Origin: a virus
Lineage: Duplodnaviria > Caudoviricetes
Length of the DNA stretch: 64,000 nt
Strand: one strand, 5' to 3'
Virus record (IMG/VR): IMGVR_UViG_3300008262_000001
The notes under the pieces were generated by a model. The model saw nothing but the letters and a program-made list of their open reading frames with translations, was not told where the DNA came from and ran no database searches. Numbering within the stretch: position 1 is the stretch's first letter; each line of letters starts with the position of its first letter. Both the position numbers and the translations under genes were made by a program. Shown here one piece after another: positions 4,134 through 55,304 of the stretch.

Positions 4134-7344
<3,211 letters not shown>

Positions 7345-11799: not shown

Positions 11800-16792
<4,993 letters not shown>

Positions 16793-16796
16793 GAAT

Positions 16797-17552
16797 ATGA
16801 GCTACAGATTAGAAAATTTTCTAGAAAAAATATCTTCTAAAAAGAAAGTCCTTTTTTTAACAACATCCAATAGATGGGAAGGAAGTAAAGAGGTTCCAAA
16901 ATCTACACTTTTGGCAAGATCAATCAAAGAAAGAGTAAGCGCAACAACTGAGGTAAACATAATTGATGTGCCTTCTTTAAATATTTTCCCCTGCGAAGGC
17001 AACGTTTCTGGAGTAGATGGAAACAACTGTGGAATTAAAGATTCATTGCTTAAGGATTCAGAAAAAAATCCTTCAGGATTTCATAGATGTTGGGCTTCTC
17101 TCAATCACGAAGAAGACGAACTTTGGAAAATTTCTAAGGAGATGTTTGAATCGGAAGCTGTAGTTTTCTTTATCAGCGTGAGATGGGGACAAGCCAATGC
17201 TTTCTATCAAAAACTAATTGAGAGATTGAATTGGATAGAGAACATTCACTTTACTTTAGGTGAAGATAATTTTGTTTCTGATATTGAAGCTGGTTGTGTG
17301 GTGGTTGGTCAAAACTGGAACGGGGAAAATGTTTTAGAAACCCAAAAGCAGGTCTATGAATTCTATGGATTTCAGGTTCCAGATGAGCTTTCTTTTTACT
17401 GGCAATACACCCAAGATATTATGGACGAAACCCAGGAATCTTATGAGGAAGCTCCTAAAGCTTTTGTAAAAGAATTTGATCTTTCTATTTCCTCTTTAAA
17501 AGAATCTCTAAACAAAGCTTTTCAAGGCTTAAAAAGACTTTTTGATTTTTAA
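16797..17552 (+). CDS. NAD(P)H-dependent FMN reductase / WrbA-like flavodoxin-fold protein
   Basis: VLFLTTSNR, NIFPCEG..C, EAVVFFISVRWG..KLIERL; start moved to ATG 16797 after the promoter motif. Confidence 0.7.
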   Translation: MSYRLENFLEKISSKKKVLFLTTSNRWEGSKEVPKSTLLARSIKERVSATTEVNIIDVPSLNIFPCEGNVSGVDGNNCGIKDSLLKDSEKNPSGFHRCWASLNHEEDELWKISKEMFESEAVVFFISVRWGQANAFYQKLIERLNWIENIHFTLGEDNFVSDIEAGCVVVGQNWNGENVLETQKQVYEFYGFQVPDELSFYWQYTQDIMDETQESYEEAPKAFVKEFDLSISSLKESLNKAFQGLKRLFDF

Positions 17553-17986
17553 CAGGGGAAGAGTTTTTGTCCGACTAATTGCCATATTTTTTCAATACGA
17601 TCTTCGAAAAAGTGTAAGTTCTCCTTTCCCTTTAAAGGATTTGTAAAATCCCATTGTATTGATTCTATTCCCAAGATCCCTCTATCAGATTCTAATTGGA
17701 CTTCAAAGGTAAACTCAAATAGTTCAGGATCTTCAATGACTTGCTTTAGATCATAACAATAACAATAGATCGTGTACTTGAGTTTATCTTGATCCATGAA
17801 TTCTTTAGTGTACGCATCATAGCAAAAATCTCCCTTGATTTTTTTTGCATCAAATCTTAAGTACCCTGAGGAGATAAGTATGTTTCTGAAAATATAGGAA
17901 TTAGCACTTCCTGTTTGAAGAGACTCAATCGAGATAGAACTTTCCCTCTCTGTATGTGACCGAAATTGGATCGTTGGTTGGGGCAT
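17549..17986 (-). CDS. Hypothetical protein (start uncertain)
   Basis: ORF track; 62-bp overlap with the upstream gene suggests a later start. Confidence 0.55.
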   Translation of the reverse strand: MPQPTIQFRSHTERESSISIESLQTGSANSYIFRNILISSGYLRFDAKKIKGDFCYDAYTKEFMDQDKLKYTIYCYCYDLKQVIEDPELFEFTFEVQLESDRGILGIESIQWDFTNPLKGKENLHFFEDRIEKIWQLVGQKLFPC

Positions 17987-47091: not shown

Positions 47092-47265
47092 ATGAGCAAC
47101 GAAGAATATTTAGAAGAAATTTTACACGAAGCACACAGATTAGGTGTGGTTTCAGAGATAATCTCTAGGGTTCCAGAGAACGTTCAAGACAGGGAAAGAA
47201 CTGATGCTTTCTTAAAGGCTTTCCGTGAAGTTGTCAAAGAAAAAAATTTAGAGCATTCTCTCTAA
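47092..47265 (+). CDS. 57-aa hypothetical protein (MSNEEYLEEILHEAHRLG...)
   Basis: Hand translation; GATAAATAC at 47080-47088. Confidence 0.6.
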   Translation: MSNEEYLEEILHEAHRLGVVSEIISRVPENVQDRERTDAFLKAFREVVKEKNLEHSL

Positions 47266-48281
47266 AGAATAATTTCACTATCAAGATCTATAAGGTTGTG
47301 ATCTCCGTCTGGTATCTCAACATAGTCATACTTCTTATAAGTCTTAGCATAACTTTTAGCCTTGTCTTTTAGAATTTGAACTATATCTGAAGGCATTTTA
47401 GTCCCAAAGCAATCTTCAAAAATATATTTGTAAATTCTAATCGATGCGTTGCCTACCAGTCCTGGAGTTTCGTTATGTTCTATACACCAAGCCTTGTTTT
47501 CATTGTCAATAGCAACATCTAAACCAACAAAGTTGAGATTAGGATAGAAGTCAAAAATAGATTGAGCTATAGGCTTTATTTGACTCCAATATGGAAATAA
47601 ATTGATATCTATAGGTTCCCAAATAAACTTGGATTTGATCTCTTTTTCCTTTGCCTCATTTACTCTCAAAGATTTTGATTTTTTATTATTTGGAGTTCTG
47701 CACCAAACGCCAAAAGCCTTTATTCTTTGATCATTGTTACCCTTAAATAACATTATTCTATACTCGTCTTGAATAGGAATACATTCTTGGTAAACATCAA
47801 ACTTCTTATTTCCTAATTGCTCAATAGAATCTATTTTTTCTACACCCTTGGATTGATAGGAATCATCTTTTTTGGCAATGATAGGAAATCTTAATGTTTT
47901 TAAATCCTGCTTATTGAACACTGTCTTTGGGAACCAATCTACTTTTTTATCTAAAGCTTTTTTAGCAAGATCTTTCTTGCCTGGATCGAAGTCTGACGGA
48001 TGATTATAAATTAAAGACTTCTTAGGTAAATCACCATTCTTCAAAAGATCTTTTGATCTTTTCGGATTTCTCCAGAAAAGCAATGGCAATTCTTTGTCTA
48101 TTTTATTGAATTTATTTCTTTCATAGAAATCCACCCAATAGTTTTTCATATCATCACCTATCTCTTCCTCAGCATCCTGAAAGTTTAGGGAACAATAGAT
48201 TTGTACCTTTTTGAAAAAGTCATTAACCATTTTTTCAATGTTAGATTTTTGGAAATTTTCAAAAAGTTTGATGTGTTTCAT
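47262..48281 (-). CDS. RimK-like ATP-grasp ligase with MKHIKLFENF tag
   Basis: FPKT, FPIIAK....SKGV, YQECI....EYRI, GLDV..D....CIEHNETPG; GATATATAC at 48286-48294. Confidence 0.8.
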   Translation of the reverse strand: MKHIKLFENFQKSNIEKMVNDFFKKVQIYCSLNFQDAEEEIGDDMKNYWVDFYERNKFNKIDKELPLLFWRNPKRSKDLLKNGDLPKKSLIYNHPSDFDPGKKDLAKKALDKKVDWFPKTVFNKQDLKTLRFPIIAKKDDSYQSKGVEKIDSIEQLGNKKFDVYQECIPIQDEYRIMLFKGNNDQRIKAFGVWCRTPNNKKSKSLRVNEAKEKEIKSKFIWEPIDINLFPYWSQIKPIAQSIFDFYPNLNFVGLDVAIDNENKAWCIEHNETPGLVGNASIRIYKYIFEDCFGTKMPSDIVQILKDKAKSYAKTYKKYDYVEIPDGDHNLIDLDSEIIL

Positions 48282-48295
48282 AGCAGTATATATCT

Positions 48296-48330
48296 AAAAT
48301 AAAAGGGTCAGACTTTGGATGTCTGACCCT
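48296..48330 (-). terminator. Intrinsic terminator after the endolysin
   Basis: Perfect 10-bp stem AGGGTCAGAC/GTCTGACCCT, 7-nt loop, T-rich tail on minus strand. Confidence 0.85.
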
Positions 48331-48348: not shown

Positions 48349-49182
48349 TTAGGCCAAGAGGCTATAGTATTCTTTGAAATGTTTGATACGATCAGGTAAT
48401 CCAATAGTTCCTCCGTTTACTCTCTTTGTTACTGCTGTGACAGTTGCATCATCTGCACCTTTATCACATATGCTCCAAAGTCCGTTATTGTTGAAGAAAA
48501 ATGCAGCAGACATCAATGGATATTTAGTTGCAACTAAATCTGGATTGGCTAAGATATCTTCATCAACCATTTTATCGAAAGCTGAGTAATTAGATTTTCC
48601 TGTTAGTTGGATATAACCTCTACCTCTGAATTTATAGCCATCACCAGAAGCTTCATCTCCATTTCCCATTCTAGAAGAATAAACCTTGTTGGCAATTTTT
48701 TCGGGTTGTCTAGAATATGATTCGTTTAAGTTTCCAGGAAAGTATTTAGGAAAAATCTTTTTAAGGCCATCAGCTGAATAGTTTAGATTCTCAGAGACAG
48801 CTTTGAAACCTCCTGATTCATGACCACACTGAGCTAAGAAGTGTGCAAGTCTTAAAGTGTTTGTAATTCCAAATTTTGCAGCAGTGTCTGGAATCTGTGC
48901 AATCACTGCATCCGGAATATGACCTTTTAGTTTATCCAGCTTGAAAGAGCTTGATGGAATGGTAACTGGTGATGCTGAAGGGGCATCAGGAAAAGAAGCA
49001 GTAACTCCCATCCGATCCAATGTTGCTGGGCCTGCTATTCCGTCAGCAGTGAGACCGTGTTTTTCTTGCCATTGTTTTAGCGATTGTTCTGTGCCTGGAC
49101 CGAAATTTCCGTCTGCTCCAATTCCTAGAGCTTTCTGTAATCTTTCCACATCAGGACCTTTAGAGCCGAGTTTAAGAATCAT
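48349..49182 (-). CDS. Modular endolysin: peptidoglycan-binding domain + GH19
   Basis: LKLGSKGPDVERLQ..LG..DG.FG..T..DGIAG..T; AHFLAQCGHES, GDG.KFRGRGYIQLTG; GATATATAG at 49198-49206. Confidence 0.92.
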   Translation of the reverse strand: MILKLGSKGPDVERLQKALGIGADGNFGPGTEQSLKQWQEKHGLTADGIAGPATLDRMGVTASFPDAPSASPVTIPSSSFKLDKLKGHIPDAVIAQIPDTAAKFGITNTLRLAHFLAQCGHESGGFKAVSENLNYSADGLKKIFPKYFPGNLNESYSRQPEKIANKVYSSRMGNGDEASGDGYKFRGRGYIQLTGKSNYSAFDKMVDEDILANPDLVATKYPLMSAAFFFNNNGLWSICDKGADDATVTAVTKRVNGGTIGLPDRIKHFKEYYSLLA

Positions 49183-49223
49183 GAGATATATTTTTTACTA
49201 TATATCCCCAAAAAGTCCTTAAT

Positions 49224-49472
49224 TTACTTAAATGAAATCACTTCGATCTCAATAGAATCTCCTGGACAATATTGTTTATCTACCACGAACGTGTTGTCCC
49301 AACAATCAGTTTTAACCCTCCATTGATTTTTCCTGTTGATTTCATCCATAACAGAAACTATTGGAATTTTTTCAGAAGAAACAACTTCACATTTGACTTT
49401 CTTGACTTCCTTTTGTTTATCGAAACAGCCGATAATGAAAACTGGAATGATTAAATAAATTATTTTTTTCAT
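49224..49472 (-). CDS. Small lipoprotein
   Basis: MKKIIYLIIPVFIIG|C lipobox. Confidence 0.65.
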   Translation of the reverse strand: MKKIIYLIIPVFIIGCFDKQKEVKKVKCEVVSSEKIPIVSVMDEINRKNQWRVKTDCWDNTFVVDKQYCPGDSIEIEVISFK

Positions 49473-49478
49473 AGTCTT

Positions 49479-49664
49479 TTAGTATCGTTTAAAATCTCTT
49501 AAATAAACATGGACCCTTTCTTCAGGAATAGAAAAACAGAAACTTTTTTGTGTGAGTTTATTTCCTCCAGGAAATTTATCATTCATAACTTCAAAAAGCT
49601 CCTTTCTGCTTCCTTCCAATTCAATACCTTCAATGTCAGGGTAATTTAGTGTTTTTCTTCCCAT
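49479..49664 (-). CDS. Hypothetical protein
   Basis: 61-aa ORF. Confidence 0.55.
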   Translation of the reverse strand: MGRKTLNYPDIEGIELEGSRKELFEVMNDKFPGGNKLTQKSFCFSIPEERVHVYLRDFKRY

Positions 49665-49748: not shown

Positions 49749-50438
49749 TTATTCTCCAGATTTTCCTGATCCTTGCGAAGCATATTTAACACCCATTATA
49801 GTACCGATAATACTAAAGGCATTTGTTAATAGAATACCAAACATATTGCTCCAGGTAGAACTAATTATTTGTGTGTCCTTATCTGTGAACATTGCAGTTA
49901 AATAAAGCCCGGTTGTGACCAAACCTACTCCTAGAATTATATAAAGAGCAACCCTTACTATGGTGCTAATTAATTCGAATTGTGTTCTTTTCTGTAGAAC
50001 ATCTAAATCATTTTCAGCATTTTGTTTAGCCTTTTCTGCTTCTTCCCTTGCTCTCTCAGATTTAAGCATTTCTTCCCTGAGTTCTTGACTCATCCTTTCG
50101 TTGTCATCTTTCCAGAGTAGCAGTTCTTTATTTTGACTTTCGATTTGTTCTTTAGAAGTTTCTGTTTGAGTAAGGGCTTCCTGAAGCTCCTCCATTATTC
50201 TTTTGTTCTCATCATTAAGATCCAATAACTCCTTATTTTTTGTCTGGATCTGTTTGGTGATTTCGAGCCTTTTCTTCCTAGTGGCAATATCTTTCTCTGA
50301 ACACTTTTTTAAATACTCGCTAAATTCCTCGTCCCCACCAGAATCTATTACTTTAATGATGTTACCTTCTAAAAAAAGATTTTTAGATTCAGAGATGGAA
50401 ATTAATTCCTTCTTTATTTCACTGGTTAGTTTAATCAC
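49749..50438 (-). CDS. Coiled-coil membrane protein with two C-terminal TM helices (last gene of the TCS operon)
   Basis: GTG start overlapping the response regulator TGA; about 110-aa heptad region; two hydrophobic segments. Confidence 0.75.
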   Translation of the reverse strand: MIKLTSEIKKELISISESKNLFLEGNIIKVIDSGGDEEFSEYLKKCSEKDIATRKKRLEITKQIQTKNKELLDLNDENKRIMEELQEALTQTETSKEQIESQNKELLLWKDDNERMSQELREEMLKSERAREEAEKAKQNAENDLDVLQKRTQFELISTIVRVALYIILGVGLVTTGLYLTAMFTDKDTQIISSTWSNMFGILLTNAFSIIGTIMGVKYASQGSGKSGE

Positions 50439-50866
50439 TTATAAACTTTGAAAGGTGCAGTTCTTTTTTTGTATCCGTCGTAATCCTTTTTAAATTCTTC
50501 AAGTCTTGGTTCAATATCATCAGATTTTATAATCCAAAATTGAGCTCCCGCTTGTATTGCTTTAGCCTGTTCATCGGGTTCATTAGATGATGAAATTATA
50601 CCTATCACAACGTGATTTCCGTATTCAAAGTTGATTTTTCTAATAAGCTCGATACCATCAAAGGAAGAACCTATGATATTCAAGTCAACAAAAACACATT
50701 CTGGTTTTTCTGCTGGGTTTTTCTGCCACTGCTGGAAAAGTTTAGCAGCTTCATCTGAGCTGTTCAAGGTCTTTAAAGAAAGAGTTATATCTAACAATGA
50801 ACAGGAATCCTCAAAAACTAAGTGGAATAAGTCCTCATCGTCTACTAACAAAATTGAATCAATCAT
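50435..50866 (-). CDS. Single-domain CheY-like response regulator
   Basis: LLVDDE, phospho-acceptor CVFVD, IISSS, conserved K in WIIKS; no output domain. Confidence 0.92.
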   Translation of the reverse strand: MIDSILLVDDEDLFHLVFEDSCSLLDITLSLKTLNSSDEAAKLFQQWQKNPAEKPECVFVDLNIIGSSFDGIELIRKINFEYGNHVVIGIISSSNEPDEQAKAIQAGAQFWIIKSDDIEPRLEEFKKDYDGYKKRTAPFKVYK

Positions 50867-50870
50867 AATT

Positions 50871-52154
50871 TTATTTCAGTTTAATTATTATTTTGGTTCC
50901 GATGTCATTTTTATCACACAACATCTCAAATCCGTGCTCCTTAAAAATTACATTAGAAATACTCAAACCCAGTCCCATTTCCCCTTCCTCTTGTTCTTCC
51001 CTTTTGCGTTTGATGATTTTTTCAAACTGTTTTCTTGTTAGTCCTCTCCCGTTGTCTTGAACTACGAGATTTTCTTCTTCCATGTAAATTCTAACATATT
51101 TATCCTCGTTGTCATTATATTTAAGTCCATTCTTTATAAGATTATCGAGTGCATTACAAAATAATACTGCATTAACCTCTAAGTCAGGAAGCGACTCAAG
51201 TTTAACCTGGTTTGAATAAGAGGTGTTGCTCATATAGTTTTGCAATATCTCGGAAATACTAATCAACTTTTTATCTAAAACAACATTTTGCTTTACCAAA
51301 TTAGTAAACTCGTACACACTCTTGTAAACCCTTTGAGTGTGAGCCAATCCATCCTTAATCATTTTTAAAGAGGTCTCTATCTTAAGATTTTGTACTTCTT
51401 CTGGAGATATCCTCTTTTCTAAAGAAGTCAGTCCCCTAGGAATGTATGTGTTAATTCCCGAGTGCATATCGTGCCTGATAATTCTGGCTGCGTGCTCTAA
51501 ATAAGTGTTCTTTTTGTTTATATCGTCTAACTGGCTTTCTATCTCTCCGTCTTTGACCCTGATTGTTTTTCTCTGTAAAAGAACCATAACTCCAAGTATT
51601 GAAAGAACTAATCCAATAATTGCAGTATAAAGATATTTCTTATATGTTTCTTTTTCAGTCTTTAAAATTTCCTTGTCAACTATAAGATTTCCATTTTCGT
51701 CTTTTAAATCTCCAGATTCAAGAGTTAAGGTAACAATGTTCTTTTCCTTTTTAAGAGTTTTAATTGTTCCCTCTTTAGTTTCGACTAATTTTTGATTAAC
51801 AACTTTTGCTTGGAGTAACGAATCTCTCTCTTGAATAAGCTTATTTATTTTATTATCAATCTCTTGAAGAATATTCTTTAAATCCTGCTTGGGAAGTTCT
51901 TCGTAAGTTTTTGGTAACGTCTCTAAGAACTGTAAATCTTTTTTAACGCTTTCAACTACAAATAGTTCATCTTCCAAGATTGTTGCGGTTATGACTTTTT
52001 CCTCCTTAGGTTCAAACACCTTTTCTGGTTCAACCCATACAGGGCGTATTCTTCTGTCCACTACTGTATCTTGCGATAAAGAAAATAAAGGTAAGAATAG
52101 AATTAAAAGGATAAGGGCATTTTTCATTTTTTCCATTGTGATTTGTGTTTCCAA
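50871..52154 (-). CDS. Histidine kinase with exported coiled-coil N-terminus and one TM
   Basis: Signal MKNALILLILFLPLFSLS|Q; TM YTAIIGLVLSILGVMVLL; H-box RHDM, N-box DNLIKNGLKY, G1 QDNGRG, G2 GLGL. Confidence 0.9.
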   Translation of the reverse strand: METQITMEKMKNALILLILFLPLFSLSQDTVVDRRIRPVWVEPEKVFEPKEEKVITATILEDELFVVESVKKDLQFLETLPKTYEELPKQDLKNILQEIDNKINKLIQERDSLLQAKVVNQKLVETKEGTIKTLKKEKNIVTLTLESGDLKDENGNLIVDKEILKTEKETYKKYLYTAIIGLVLSILGVMVLLQRKTIRVKDGEIESQLDDINKKNTYLEHAARIIRHDMHSGINTYIPRGLTSLEKRISPEEVQNLKIETSLKMIKDGLAHTQRVYKSVYEFTNLVKQNVVLDKKLISISEILQNYMSNTSYSNQVKLESLPDLEVNAVLFCNALDNLIKNGLKYNDNEDKYVRIYMEEENLVVQDNGRGLTRKQFEKIIKRKREEQEEGEMGLGLSISNVIFKEHGFEMLCDKNDIGTKIIIKLK

Positions 52155-52711
52155 ACTTTTCTTTGTCTGATTCTTTCTTGACCAACAAGTTCCAAATCAC
52201 CTAGTCCCCCAAATCCCCTTTCTCTTGATCCTGGACCTTGTCCGTTTTCAGAATATTCTAAGAATCTTCTATATTCACTGTCTTTCATCCTTGGTAAAAA
52301 AATTCCATAGTCGTCAGTTGTAAGAAAATATCTTGAAAGGTCTAAAACATAAAGCTCAGTATCTAAAGGACTTGAGGTGAAAATAATCGAAGGTGAAAGT
52401 GACCATTTCCATATGCTATCTAAAAGAGCGTTATTCCATGCTAAAGAGGAATCTAATGAATTTTTGAGACTATCAATTTCTTTATTTTGTAATGAAATAA
52501 AACGATTAAGACTATCCGTTGTGTTTTTAAAAGCTTTAAATTTATTTAGCATCAACAGATTTTGTTCATCGATAGTTCTGTTAATCTCTTCACTTTGTGC
52601 GATTGTCAGAATAACTACAGAGTCCCCACGAAAAATAGTTTGAATGGGATATTGGTTTTGTGAATAAACCAAAGAAGAAATTAGGAGGAAAACTAATAAT
52701 AGCGTTTTCAT
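52124..52711 (-). CDS. Secreted coiled-coil protein (TCS accessory)
   Basis: Signal MKTLLLVFLLISSLVYS|Q; coupled on both sides to kinase genes. Confidence 0.7.
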   Translation of the reverse strand: MKTLLLVFLLISSLVYSQNQYPIQTIFRGDSVVILTIAQSEEINRTIDEQNLLMLNKFKAFKNTTDSLNRFISLQNKEIDSLKNSLDSSLAWNNALLDSIWKWSLSPSIIFTSSPLDTELYVLDLSRYFLTTDDYGIFLPRMKDSEYRRFLEYSENGQGPGSRERGFGGLGDLELVGQERIRQRKVWKHKSQWKK

Positions 52712-54834
52712 TATAGCATCTTTATTTTCATCTTGGTCCCTATTTGGTTTTTCTCACAAGTTATAGAAAATCCATGCTCGTGAAGAATTGCTACACATAT
52801 GTTTAAACCTAATCCGGTTCCAGATTCCTTTTGCCCCTCTTTCCTAGTATAGGGTTTAGATAAATGTTCAAAGTCTTCCTGTGTTATACCTCTTCCATTA
52901 TCCTGTATATAAAGAGTATCTTCTTCAAAATAAATCTTGACAAATTTTGTTTCCGAGTCATTGTACTTAAGTCCATTCCTTATTAGGTTGTCTACAGCAG
53001 TACAAAATAGTGGTTCATTCACGCTGATTGTTGGAAGATCTGAAATGATAACTTGACTATGATAAGCAGTTGCAGAAAGATAGTCCTGTAGGATTATTTT
53101 TAAATTACAATCTGTTCTATTTAGAACTACATCCTTCTTTACTAAATTTGTAAATTCATAAACACCCTTGTAAACCTTCTGGGCATGTCTAAGACCTTCT
53201 TTGATCATTTTGATTGGAGCTTCAATTTTAAGCGAATCTATATCTTCCTGTTTGAGCCTTCTTTCTAAAGATCCTAGTCCTCTAGGAATATACGTATTAA
53301 TCCCAGAGTGCATATCGTGTCTTAAAATTTTAGCAGCATGTTCCAAATAAGTGTTCTTTTTTTCTATTTCATTTTTTTGTTTAACAGATTCAGTAACATT
53401 AGTAGCAATTTTCATTATTCTATATGGTTTCCCATCAGTAGTTAAAATTGGATTATAGGTGGATTGAAGAAAAACCTGTTCCCCATTTTTTCTGATCCTA
53501 ACTACATCGTTTGAAAAATAAATTCCCATGCATAGATTTTTCCACATGTTGGAATATTCCCTACTATTTTTCTCCTCTTCTGAAACAAACAAACTATGAT
53601 TCTTTCCTTTTATTTCATCAAAAGAATCGTAACCCATAGTTTCCAAAAAAAGATTATTAGCAAACATTATATTCCCGTCTAAATCAAATTCTATAACAGC
53701 ATTGGATTGATTGATAGCATTCATCCTATTTCTAATCTCAGTTTCTTTTCTTATAACTTCAGTTACATCTTGTCGAATGGAATGGAATCCCTCTAGTTTA
53801 CCCCCAGAATCAAAAATTGCCTTGATATAAGTATCAACATAATATAAATGTCCATTCTTCGATCTGTTAACTACAATGTCATTCCATATTTGTCCATTCA
53901 AAACTTTCTCATACATTTTCCCCCAGTATCCATCAGGTTGTAGACCGGAGTTTACAATAGAGTGATCTTGACCACAAGCTTCTTCTAGACTCCAACCAGA
54001 AACTTCAGAAAATTTTTCGTTGACATAAGTTATTTTTCCGTTTTTATCAGCTATTGAAACCAGAGATGATTTGTCGATAAAATTTTCAGTTTCTTTGATT
54101 CTCCTAAGCAAATCATTGGTTTCGTGCATCGAGAATCCAAACGAATATAGCGAAGAAAGGATCTGTGCAAAATTAACTTCTATTTTTCTCCATTTCCTAG
54201 AGGTGAGATTCTCTATACAAATCACACCAATATTTGATCCCTTGTACCAAATAGGAACATCCAGCATCGATTTTATCCCTAAAGGTTTTAGATATGGATC
54301 AGTAAAACATCTTGTGGAGGGATGGTTTTCAGCATCATTTGCAACTATTATTGGTTCATTTCTCAAAGCTTCAAAATACTCTGAAAAATCTTTTTCGAAT
54401 AACTCTATTCCGTCTTGGAATGAATCTTCTAATTTTGAATACAATTGCTGACAAACAATCCCAGATCTATCTTTGTTATACAACCAAATAGAAGCTCTAT
54501 CTGCATCAATCGTTTCCGTTATTTCTTTAGTTACAGACCTTGCTGCTTGATCGATATCACCAAAATAGTAAATTTCATTATATGCCTGTTTAATCAGGGA
54601 AGAATTAATTTTCTTAGAATAATCATTCAGAAATATTGTGTCTTTCGTTTTGATTTTGAGATCCCTAATGAGCATAAAAAAGAAGGGAGCGAAAGAAAGG
54701 AAACAAATATATTCGGTTATCCTAGTTAACCTAGAACTTTGTACGGTCTCGAAAAGAACTAATGTTTTTACCGAAAAGAATATTGTCATTAAAACAATAC
54801 AAACCAGTAAAGATATTTTAGAGGATTTAAGCAT
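52711..54834 (-). CDS. Sensor histidine kinase: 2TM-GAF-PAS-PAS-HisKA-like-HATPase
   Basis: GAF (RASIWLY..SMLDVPI..GVICIE); PAS (YVNEKF..SG..GQDH; FANNLF..MGY..GKNHSLF); RHDM, DNLIRNGLKY, QDNGRG, GTGLGL. Confidence 0.93.
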   Translation of the reverse strand: MLKSSKISLLVCIVLMTIFFSVKTLVLFETVQSSRLTRITEYICFLSFAPFFFMLIRDLKIKTKDTIFLNDYSKKINSSLIKQAYNEIYYFGDIDQAARSVTKEITETIDADRASIWLYNKDRSGIVCQQLYSKLEDSFQDGIELFEKDFSEYFEALRNEPIIVANDAENHPSTRCFTDPYLKPLGIKSMLDVPIWYKGSNIGVICIENLTSRKWRKIEVNFAQILSSLYSFGFSMHETNDLLRRIKETENFIDKSSLVSIADKNGKITYVNEKFSEVSGWSLEEACGQDHSIVNSGLQPDGYWGKMYEKVLNGQIWNDIVVNRSKNGHLYYVDTYIKAIFDSGGKLEGFHSIRQDVTEVIRKETEIRNRMNAINQSNAVIEFDLDGNIMFANNLFLETMGYDSFDEIKGKNHSLFVSEEEKNSREYSNMWKNLCMGIYFSNDVVRIRKNGEQVFLQSTYNPILTTDGKPYRIMKIATNVTESVKQKNEIEKKNTYLEHAAKILRHDMHSGINTYIPRGLGSLERRLKQEDIDSLKIEAPIKMIKEGLRHAQKVYKGVYEFTNLVKKDVVLNRTDCNLKIILQDYLSATAYHSQVIISDLPTISVNEPLFCTAVDNLIRNGLKYNDSETKFVKIYFEEDTLYIQDNGRGITQEDFEHLSKPYTRKEGQKESGTGLGLNICVAILHEHGFSITCEKNQIGTKMKIKML

Positions 54835-54846
54835 TTAGTTTACTTG

Positions 54847-54855
54847 CTATATATC
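54847..54855 (-). promoter_or_regulatory. Putative late promoter GATATATAG heading the TCS operon
   Basis: Motif 12 nt upstream of ATG. Confidence 0.55.
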
Positions 54856-54875: not shown

Positions 54876-55304
54876 CTATGATTTTCTTAATTCCCTAGAT
54901 AATTCTTTTTCCTTAATAGAAGCTCTTTTGTCATAGTTTTTCTTACCCCTAGAAAGAGCAATTTTTATTTTGATCTTACCTCTTTCATTGGTAAATATCA
55001 AGAAAGGAACGATTGTAATTCCTGTACTTAATCCTCTTTGCAATTTTGCAATCTCACTTTTTTTAAGGAGTAATTTTTTAACCCGTAAAGAATCATGAGA
55101 AAAATCACCTAAAGGAGAAACATTTAAGCCTTTAAGAAAAATTTCATTTTTGTCAATATAGCAAAAAGCATCTACCATAGACACCTTACCTGATATTATA
55201 GACTTTACCTCTGAGCCTAACAATTGAATTCCTGCTGTATACTCCTCAAGAAAAAAATAATCGAAAGATGCTTTCCTGTTTTTAATGTAAATACTATTCT
55301 TCAT
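54876..55304 (-). CDS. smpB: SsrA-binding protein SmpB
   Basis: NRKA.FDY...EY.AGI.L.GSEVKS, KKLLLKKSEI..L, TIVP, GKKNYDKR. Confidence 0.93.
   Translation of the reverse strand: MKNSIYIKNRKASFDYFFLEEYTAGIQLLGSEVKSIISGKVSMVDAFCYIDKNEIFLKGLNVSPLGDFSHDSLRVKKLLLKKSEIAKLQRGLSTGITIVPFLIFTNERGKIKIKIALSRGKKNYDKRASIKEKELSRELRKS

Follow-up and report, generated by a model that had tools for sequence, protein, structure and literature searches.

The stretch of DNA analysed here, referred to as the window, comprises 64,000 nucleotides (nt) of a linear virus record of 174,942 bases in IMG/VR (IMGVR_UViG_3300008262_000001), the completeness of which was estimated at 63% by CheckV, and the coordinates given below are window positions unless stated otherwise. 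On its minus strand, between positions 49749 and 54834, five open reading frames (ORFs) encode two sensor histidine kinases (HK1 and HK2), a secreted protein (sec195), a stand-alone receiver (RR) and a protein with a coiled coil and two membrane helices (cc229), and they make up a genuine two-component pathway of a phage, which is intact and strongly conserved and includes a new membrane partner, and the mechanism of which we infer below. A first-pass annotation, made from the sequence alone, had proposed a five-gene signalling operon behind a short motif, and all five ORFs were present as it described them. The features of the cassette, in the order of reading, are as follows.

54847..54855, minus strand: GATATATAG motif, 12 nt before the ATG of HK1, a candidate promoter element with the consensus GATATATAN
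52711..54834, minus strand: HK1, sensor histidine kinase of 707 amino acids (aa), from Pfam, hydrophobicity and an alignment of kinase cores
52124..52711, minus strand: sec195, secreted protein of 195 aa, from a signal peptide and an AlphaFold2 (AF2) model
50871..52127, minus strand: HK2, paralogous kinase, from a HATPase_c match and the grouping of HK2 cores from five lineages in a tree
50435..50866, minus strand: RR, stand-alone receiver of 143 aa, from a Response_reg match and invariant catalytic residues
49749..50438, minus strand: cc229, 229 aa, coiled coil and two membrane helices, from synteny, model and hydrophobicity

The genes are closely packed. HK1 and sec195 overlap by 1 nt (TAATG), sec195 and HK2 meet in an ATGA provided that HK2 begins at its tenth codon, HK2 and RR are separated by a gap of 4 nt, and RR and cc229 overlap in a GTGA. 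HK2 would be 427 aa long from the first TTG (52154) and 418 aa long from the ATG at 52127, and the latter, which lies in the ATGA overlap, is the likely start.

The Pfam scan matched all of the GAF, PAS, HATPase_c and receiver domains that had been claimed for the locus. HK1 contained a GAF domain (60.8 bits), two PAS regions and a HATPase_c domain (54.3 bits), and HK2 a HATPase_c domain (46.3 bits), the cut-off for HATPase_c being 26.4 bits; together with the residues found invariant in alignments, these matches established the set as complete and its catalytic motifs as intact. The cores of the two kinases, described earlier as near-identical around the H-box, were nearly identical there in the pairwise comparison and shared 58% identity over 221 aa overall. 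When 12 kinase cores were aligned, the His of RHDMHSG, the N-box Asn, DNGRG and GLGL were invariant, which agrees with the statement that the N, G1 and G2 boxes are intact. The H-box of HK1 reads RHDMHSGINTY within a divergent DHp, and because no Pfam HisKA model matched the DHp or its H-box even at E<=1, the H-box is of a divergent type.

The profile of the kinase core matched HK853 (9.6e-13), the kinase of the HK853-RR468 pair of Thermotoga (PDB 3dge; class I HisKA), with the alignment running from DHp helix 2 through the ATP-binding domain, and the invariant H-box His sits at the expected place, ahead of the helix that aligns to DHp helix 2 of HK853. The phage system resembles HK853-RR468 in this core match, in the position of the His, in the N, G1 and G2 boxes and in having a receiver-only partner, whereas it differs in that the phage H-box has a Gly where HisKA has a Pro and matches no HisKA model, and in that it is phage-encoded, with two kinases per receiver and a dedicated membrane protein always coupled to the receiver.

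The sensor parts of the two kinases differ in their layout. The PAS pair of HK1, for which the pair of an 82%-identical HK1 homolog (P0002) was used as the query, matched the FAD-binding PAS domains of MmoS (tandem PAS, 3ewk; 1.6e-24), Aer (8dik; 2.7e-13) and NifL (2gj3; 3.2e-8), so that the likeness to Aer and NifL suggested in the first-pass annotation was recovered and the pair is, judged by its sequence, a member of the FAD-binding PAS subfamily, with flavin binding putative. The PAS of the HK1 family shares with MmoS an H-x-I-V-N-S-G stretch, whereas the R-H-P-D contact residues of Aer are replaced in the alignment by N-S-G-L. A simple hydrophobicity scan placed two conserved hydrophobic helices at the N-terminus of HK1 (residues 9-27 and 43-61), and since HK1 homologs share this N-terminus and align from residue 1, the long HK1 ORF is a real gene and its product membrane-anchored; the idea of HK1 as a soluble, purely cytoplasmic sensor had to be abandoned. 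HK2 has an N-terminal signal or membrane helix, an exported coiled-coil region of ~150 aa and a second membrane helix that leads directly, without a HAMP domain, into the DHp and CA domains.

The receiver matched Response_reg with 38.2 bits (cut-off 30.2), and in 26 aligned sequences its residues D9, D10, D61, S92-S94 and K114 were invariant. It is a single-domain protein consisting of the receiver and a conserved C-terminal tail of ~25 aa, and because it has no output domain, its output would be by protein-protein contact rather than transcriptional, as had been proposed. DHp helix 1, which holds the positions for receiver specificity, is almost identical in HK1 and HK2, and since only one receiver is encoded as well, the convergence of both kinases on this receiver, also proposed earlier, would be the simplest reading.

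To describe how the cassette varies, 80 loci were analysed out of at least 549 receiver-encoding contigs in IMG/VR, yielding 59 distinct variants, which are related to each other so that the counts given here and below are not independent. The results showed a fixed unit of HK1, RR and cc229, with cc229 following the receiver in all 59 variants, and an optional insert of sec195 and HK2, signs of which were seen in 17 of the 59. More than 2000 homologs of HK1 were found, and its sensor part proved modular, with forms that lack GAF, forms with PAS only and forms with no sensor domain at all (loci L042 and L020), while RR and cc229 were kept in every one. The receiver was the most conserved part of the cassette: in the first 18 IMG/VR loci it was mostly 82-88% identical, compared with 58-76% for HK1 and 50-65% for cc229. 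Its homologs formed 3870 clusters in metagenomes, with 85-94% identity among the 120 matches listed, and in loci from metagenome-assembled genomes (MAGs) with a GC content of 39-66% the receiver was still 63-78% identical, its C-terminal tail being conserved too. The cluster is thus conserved in related phages, on hundreds of phage contigs, as the first-pass annotation had required of a genuine system, and strong purifying selection acts on this phage relay, the proteins of which fall into thousands of clusters from freshwater metagenomes. DNA and protein searches of 50,697 GenBank phage records returned no relative of the cassette and only generic PAS and ATPase matches.

The five HK2 copies grouped together (87/88; inner four 95/89) in the kinase-core tree, nested among the HK1s of phages, a position that fits a single duplication giving rise to HK2, followed by loss or exchange. 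The gene for sec195 sits between HK1 and HK2 in all six lineages examined, down to 25% identity, and sec195 is presumed to be a periplasmic co-sensor of HK2. Its AF2 model (predicted local distance difference test, pLDDT, 77) begins with a signal peptide and a beta-hairpin, continues in a helix of 70 residues and a small beta domain, and ends in a basic tail that is disordered; the fold search against AlphaFold DB clusters gave nothing significant (best E 0.27), the model being mostly one long helix.

Neither sec195 nor cc229 matched a Pfam or PHROG family. For cc229, homologs of which formed 6382 clusters in metagenomes, the hydrophobicity scan indicated two C-terminal membrane helices, and the AF2 model (pLDDT 83) a small N-domain (residues 1-36), a helix (37-185) running into membrane helix 1, a hairpin and membrane helix 2. 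The sequence of membrane helix 2 hardly varies, and Gly, Thr, Asn and Ser abound in it. A fold search against the PDB with this model, again mostly one long helix, gave nothing significant (best E 4.6).

The link between cc229 and the receiver was drawn from gene order, complex prediction and domain fusion. The start of cc229 lay 0-51 nt from the stop of the receiver in 59 of 59 variants, and likewise in the loci of 39-66% GC. The predicted complex of RR with residues 1-160 of cc229 scored 0.41, versus 0.01 for the best control, with runs agreeing in at least 96% of contacts and a partner pLDDT of at least 87. Among 80 solved complexes, 58 reached the mark used for such predictions, as did 2 among 110 mismatched pairs, and at scores of 0.60 or less it was reached by only 7 of the 80 solved complexes and by both passing mismatches; the prediction therefore lends a contact between RR and cc229 weak support.

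The domain fusion was found among rare bacterial copies of the system. A scan for the H-box pattern over one genome per species, covering 185,579 species, returned only 8 loci, in MAGs with mixed phylum labels; at least one of them (L023) is a mis-binned phage contig with T4-type topoisomerase II genes, a cc229 homolog is likewise present in five others, and two (L027 and L028) look bacterial. Close copies of the receiver were present in 1 of 401 sampled Bacteroidota genomes, and the same count was obtained for the cc229 N-domain. Locus L027 lies on a bacterial-looking Bacteroidota contig, with type IX secretion (T9SS) sorting-domain proteins and CreD as neighbours, and contains a gene (L027:7109-8158, plus strand; P0418, 349 aa) that overlaps the stop of the receiver gene. 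The first ~124 residues of P0418 are homologous to the N-domain and the start of the coil of cc229 (39% over 131 aa, 2e-24), and the remainder is a canonical HisKA and HATPase_c core, the protein being soluble and the cc229-type N-domain its only other part. Atlas feature searches linked cc229 to unnamed viral clusters only, and returned nothing usable for sec195 or for the N-domain of L027. Because the fusion puts the cc229 N-domain on a HisKA kinase directly after a receiver, this domain is, on the strength of homology, a signal-input module joined by a coiled coil to an output; as it directly follows the receiver in both settings, the receiver would be its most economical candidate ligand and the N-domain is probably the docking site of the receiver. 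P0418 may accordingly be a receiver-controlled second-tier kinase. Locus L028 (~505900-518600 of a 967-kb contig in a 2.8-Mb Bacteroidetes assembly) encodes a receiver that shares 63% identity with the phage RR and a kinase that has several additional PAS repeats, with no cc229-like gene beside them; its neighbours are TauE, sulphur-transport genes, cytochrome c, TetR and ABC1, with an M15 peptidase gene 2 kb downstream. It may represent a phage-to-host transfer or the ancestral source, and the rare bacterial copies, the L027 fusion included, suggest gene exchange with Bacteroidota hosts.

Downstream of cc229 in the window, the cassette is followed by a lysin gene, and the features of this region are as follows.

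49479..49664, minus strand: ORF of 61 aa between cc229 and the lysin, matching no family
49224..49472, minus strand: ORF of 82 aa with a lipoprotein-like N-terminus (hydrophobic stretch to IIGC, seen by eye), matching no family, possibly an outer-membrane spanin component
49198..49206, minus strand: second copy of GATATATAG, 15 nt before the endolysin start
48349..49182, minus strand: endolysin with PG_binding_1 and glycoside hydrolase 19 (GH19) domains, from Pfam
48304..48330, minus strand: intrinsic-terminator-like hairpin with a T-run, the sole one on the gene strand between 48200 and 55400

Since the sole terminator-like hairpin follows the lysin, the cassette and the lysin may share transcripts. 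Directly after this hairpin lies a gene for a 339-aa ATP-grasp-like protein (47262-48281, minus strand), with weak, below-cut-off matches to ATPgrasp_ST and YheCD. A GH19 lysin homolog was found in the flanks of the cassette in 36 of the 59 variants, and in 24 of 35 among those with at least 2.3 kb on both sides. Its position in the 36 variants was (i) directly after cc229 in 18, (ii) further downstream on the same strand in 7, which is the layout of the window, (iii) divergent and just upstream of HK1 in 9, and (iv) upstream on the same strand in 2. Behind the lysin, relatives have a gene for a 55-aa protein that matches Phage_holin_10 of Pfam (Pam3-gp28-type) with 55.8 bits (cut-off 27), and the homolog of this holin in the present genome lies at 17439-17603 of the genome record, ~27 kb from the endolysin and behind its own GATATATAG. 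The Pfam scans of the genes downstream of the cassette in L003, L039 and L040, three related loci, gave no families. cc229 has two membrane helices and lies directly before the lysin in 18 of the 59 variants, yet at 229 aa and with a cytoplasmic domain of ~150 aa its likeness to a small holin or antiholin encoded beside an endolysin is equivocal. Two roles for cc229 were dropped: that of a holin paralog, on a comparison of its membrane part with the Phage_holin_10 homologs of these phages (hhalign probability 0.6%), and that of the only holin, on the Pam3-gp28-type holin that follows the lysin in relatives and has a homolog elsewhere in the genome.

The motif in front of HK1 was followed through the window and the whole record. 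In the window, GATATATAG occurs in 4 copies (49198, 54847, 57992 and 62793), each of them on the gene strand with an ATG 4-15 nt downstream, compared with 0.58 expected, and none of 100 shuffles reached 4; in the genome record, 10 of 14 gene-strand copies lie 4-18 nt before an ATG. One-mismatch variants precede ~30 more ORFs, and the consensus GATATATAN stands 3-23 nt before the ATG of ~40 ORFs, nearly all on one strand, so that it looks like a phage promoter placed so near the start that leaders would be very short. Genes behind GATATATAG include HK1, the lysin, the holin homolog and genes for tail-spike-like, baseplate-hub/peptidase-like and tail-fibre-like proteins, and the capsid gene has no one-mismatch form directly upstream. 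The motif claimed in front of the operon is thus present, but its true form is GATATATAN, and since this precedes ~40 genes it is not specific to the signalling operon. GATATATAG was also rejected as a specific marker of late genes, given its one-mismatch forms before ~40 ORFs and the capsid gene that lacks one directly upstream. The statement that the operon acts late in infection, which rested on this motif, was therefore not supported; a look-up of RNA runs listed none containing the locus, and late expression of the cassette is plausible.

Taken together, the best explanation overall, which we believe stands about an even chance of being right, is a phage-specific branched two-component pathway in which the receiver acts on cc229 and so tunes a membrane event of the lysis programme. 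HK1, membrane-anchored and with cytoplasmic GAF and flavin-type PAS domains, and HK2, with an exported coiled-coil sensor that would probably work with secreted sec195, would each autophosphorylate on the His of the RHD motif, and both would pass the phosphate to Asp61 of the one stand-alone receiver. The phosphorylated receiver, which is without a DNA-binding part, would then bind the cytoplasmic N-terminal domain of the co-translated cc229, and the signal would travel along the long coiled coil of cc229 to its two-helix membrane hairpin (inside-out signalling). The most likely role of such a pathway would be to tune a membrane event of the lysis programme to the redox or energy state of the host and to an envelope cue. 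Signal output via cc229 is moderately supported, cc229 being presumed to be a direct partner or effector of the receiver, and the lysis role is a plausible leading hypothesis rather than a result. In a bolder version, HK1 would read the redox/energy state of the host with its GAF and flavin-type PAS domains, sec195 and HK2 would read a periplasmic cue, and both signals would meet on the receiver to drive a lysis clock by phosphorylation, the phosphorylated receiver docking on cc229 and the hairpin of the latter holding back or releasing the Pam3-type holin and the GH19 endolysin; this version is rather doubtful.

Several results weigh against this explanation. The DHp lacks any match to the HisKA models, and the predicted contact between RR and cc229 is weak by the scale of the solved and mismatched pairs. 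Another reading of the L027 fusion is that of a second kinase which has its own sensor domain, and the fusion is no proof that the N-domain binds the receiver. With regard to lysis, a GH19 lysin homolog is missing within 6 kb in 23 of the 59 variants, the counts of lysin synteny come from related variants and not from independent events, a separate conventional holin homolog is located elsewhere in the genome, and cc229 resembles neither the Phage_holin_10 homologs of these phages nor any holin family in Pfam or PHROG.

Parallels to the proposed steps exist in several known systems. CheY is a single-domain receiver that acts on a motor partner, FliM. Single-domain receivers that act on kinase-like partners are DivK, with DivL, PleC and DivJ (PMC5361649), and the MrrA hub (PMC5964349). 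Similar to these receivers, the phage receiver has no output domain and several kinases would converge on one small protein, and the L027 kinase, which follows a receiver and has the cc229-type N-domain as its only extra part, resembles receiver-controlled kinases. A difference is that the phage partner ends in a two-helix membrane hairpin and is not a kinase or a motor protein; it has no sequence relationship to DivL, FliM or PhyK, and its binding to the receiver is weakly predicted by modelling. In the lysis inhibition of T4, the holin T together with the antiholins RI and RIII, small membrane or cytoplasmic proteins, sets the time of lysis on a signal, which is superinfection, and phosphorylation plays no part. 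The present phage is likewise T4-like and would adjust lysis to a signal through proteins acting on a holin, whereas T4 does so without phosphorylation and the link to a holin is here suggested by the gene neighbourhood. In Staphylococcus aureus, LytSR acts through the holin/antiholin-like membrane proteins LrgAB and CidAB. LytSR of staphylococci is, as a two-component system, tied to murein-hydrolase activity and cell death (PMC2996381). The phage cassette would share with LytSR the link between a two-component system and a murein hydrolase, whereas LytR is a DNA-binding transcriptional regulator (LytTR domain) and the phage receiver has Response_reg only, LytS is a multi-pass membrane kinase of another class, and cc229 is unrelated to LrgA/B.

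Of the alternatives to this pathway, the one that survives best holds that the true target of the receiver lies elsewhere, such as a host motility, envelope or stress protein or the transcription apparatus of phage or host, and that cc229 is an accessory, be it a membrane anchor, a scaffold or a phosphatase-like modulator. The receiver is far more conserved than its neighbours HK1 and cc229, its C-terminal tail is kept across 39-66% GC, which would fit several simultaneous partners, and the bacterial locus L028 makes do with kinase and receiver. However, cc229 is coupled to the receiver in every one of the 59 phage variants, in L027 its N-domain is seen again, joined to a kinase right behind the receiver, and the predicted contact, weak as its support is, far exceeds the controls; we therefore consider a target elsewhere somewhat unlikely.

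It is improbable that the N-domain of cc229 is instead an independent sensor, in which case cc229 would act before the kinases or alongside them, perhaps modulating HK1 as a membrane co-sensor. This would agree with L027, where the cc229-type N-domain holds the place of the sensor domain in an otherwise ordinary kinase, and with the membrane anchoring of both HK1 and cc229, but gene order and the overlap of start and stop tie cc229 to the receiver and not to the kinase, the weak predicted contact points the same way, and the sensor-less kinase variants L042 and L020 retain cc229.

Only a slight chance is likewise given to the view that the phage proteins act mainly by cross-talk with host two-component systems, the kinases phosphorylating host regulators or the receiver draining host phosphate, and thereby reprogramme the host. 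A host counterpart is conceivable in that kinase-receiver homologs with 57-65% identity occur in two Bacteroidota assemblies, but the phage itself encodes a complete kinase-receiver pair, and because close receiver homologs (1 of 401 sampled genomes) and the H-box pattern (8 loci, at least one of them in mis-binned phage DNA and five others accompanied by cc229) are so rare in bacteria, most hosts would lack a matching partner.

That the locus belongs to a host or to a chimeric assembly, or is a recently acquired set of passenger genes without a phage role, as two-component systems being typical of bacteria and the cellular gene SmpB adjoining the cassette might lead one to suspect, is already contradicted by the results: host DNA and chimerism are excluded for practical purposes because the IMG/VR virus record includes tail fibres, a lysin and a capsid gene of the T4 type, and because an independent Joint Genome Institute (JGI) assembly has the same order of helicase, SmpB, HK1, sec195 and HK2, with the SmpB, HK1 and sec195 proteins 100% identical, to which the receiver on at least 549 viral contigs and the labelling of cc229 clusters as 96-100% viral can be added. 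The assignment of the contig to a phage in the first-pass annotation is hence upheld. The capsid gene in the genome record is of the Gp23 (T4) type (131 bits), and its nearest relatives are those of an uncultured 462-kb phage, the Lak megaphages of Prevotella, phages of Tenacibaculum, Chryseobacterium and Flavobacterium, and Sphingomonas phage PAU; the source is a large freshwater phage, its host probably among the Bacteroidota. Proteins identical to those of the record were found on other contigs with sizes up to ~316 kb. The window also encodes collagen-like tail fibres, a tail-spike-like protein, a Dda-type helicase, SmpB and the endolysin with its PG_binding and GH19 domains.

The gene immediately upstream of the cassette is that for SmpB (54876-55304, minus strand; 151.9 bits for the SmpB family of Pfam), and in the 175-kb record four tRNAs but no tmRNA were detected with ARAGORN. 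Two of the collagen-like tail-fibre proteins are very long (11800-16731 and 4822-7329, both minus strand; 1643 and 835 aa) and have many PHROG tail-fibre matches, and the GC content climbs to 46% around 14-16 kb of the window. In related phage contigs, PrkA was seen within a few kb of the cassette in L003 and L024, with SpoVR too in L024, and DnaK/HSP70 within a few kb in L003 and L007, with DnaJ and GrpE also in L003.

Full-text literature searches found no description of such a phage-encoded kinase-receiver cassette. A survey of jumbo phages reports only a divergent receiver, never linked to kinases (PMC7824862), such genes go unmentioned in the paper on huge phages (PMC7162821), and the 'moraphage' paper describes large freshwater phages with predicted Bacteroidota hosts and DnaK/DnaJ genes, kinases being unmentioned (PMC12619734). 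DnaK/DnaJ genes also occur in the relatives of the phage studied here, as in those phages.

Phages are usually thought to sense their surroundings via host systems or small peptide signals, and in contrast to that view the phage described here carries its own complete set of genes for a phosphorelay from sensor to candidate effector. The cassette also brings to light two new protein families, cc229, a receiver-coupled presumed membrane effector, and sec195, a presumed periplasmic partner of a kinase, and the L027 kinase fusion offers a handle on how the receiver passes its signal onward. If the lysis clock were true, lysis inhibition would exist in a new form that depends on a signal and is common among the abundant jumbo phages of freshwater. 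The system provides a testable case of a virus that would make a decision during infection from intracellular and envelope cues.

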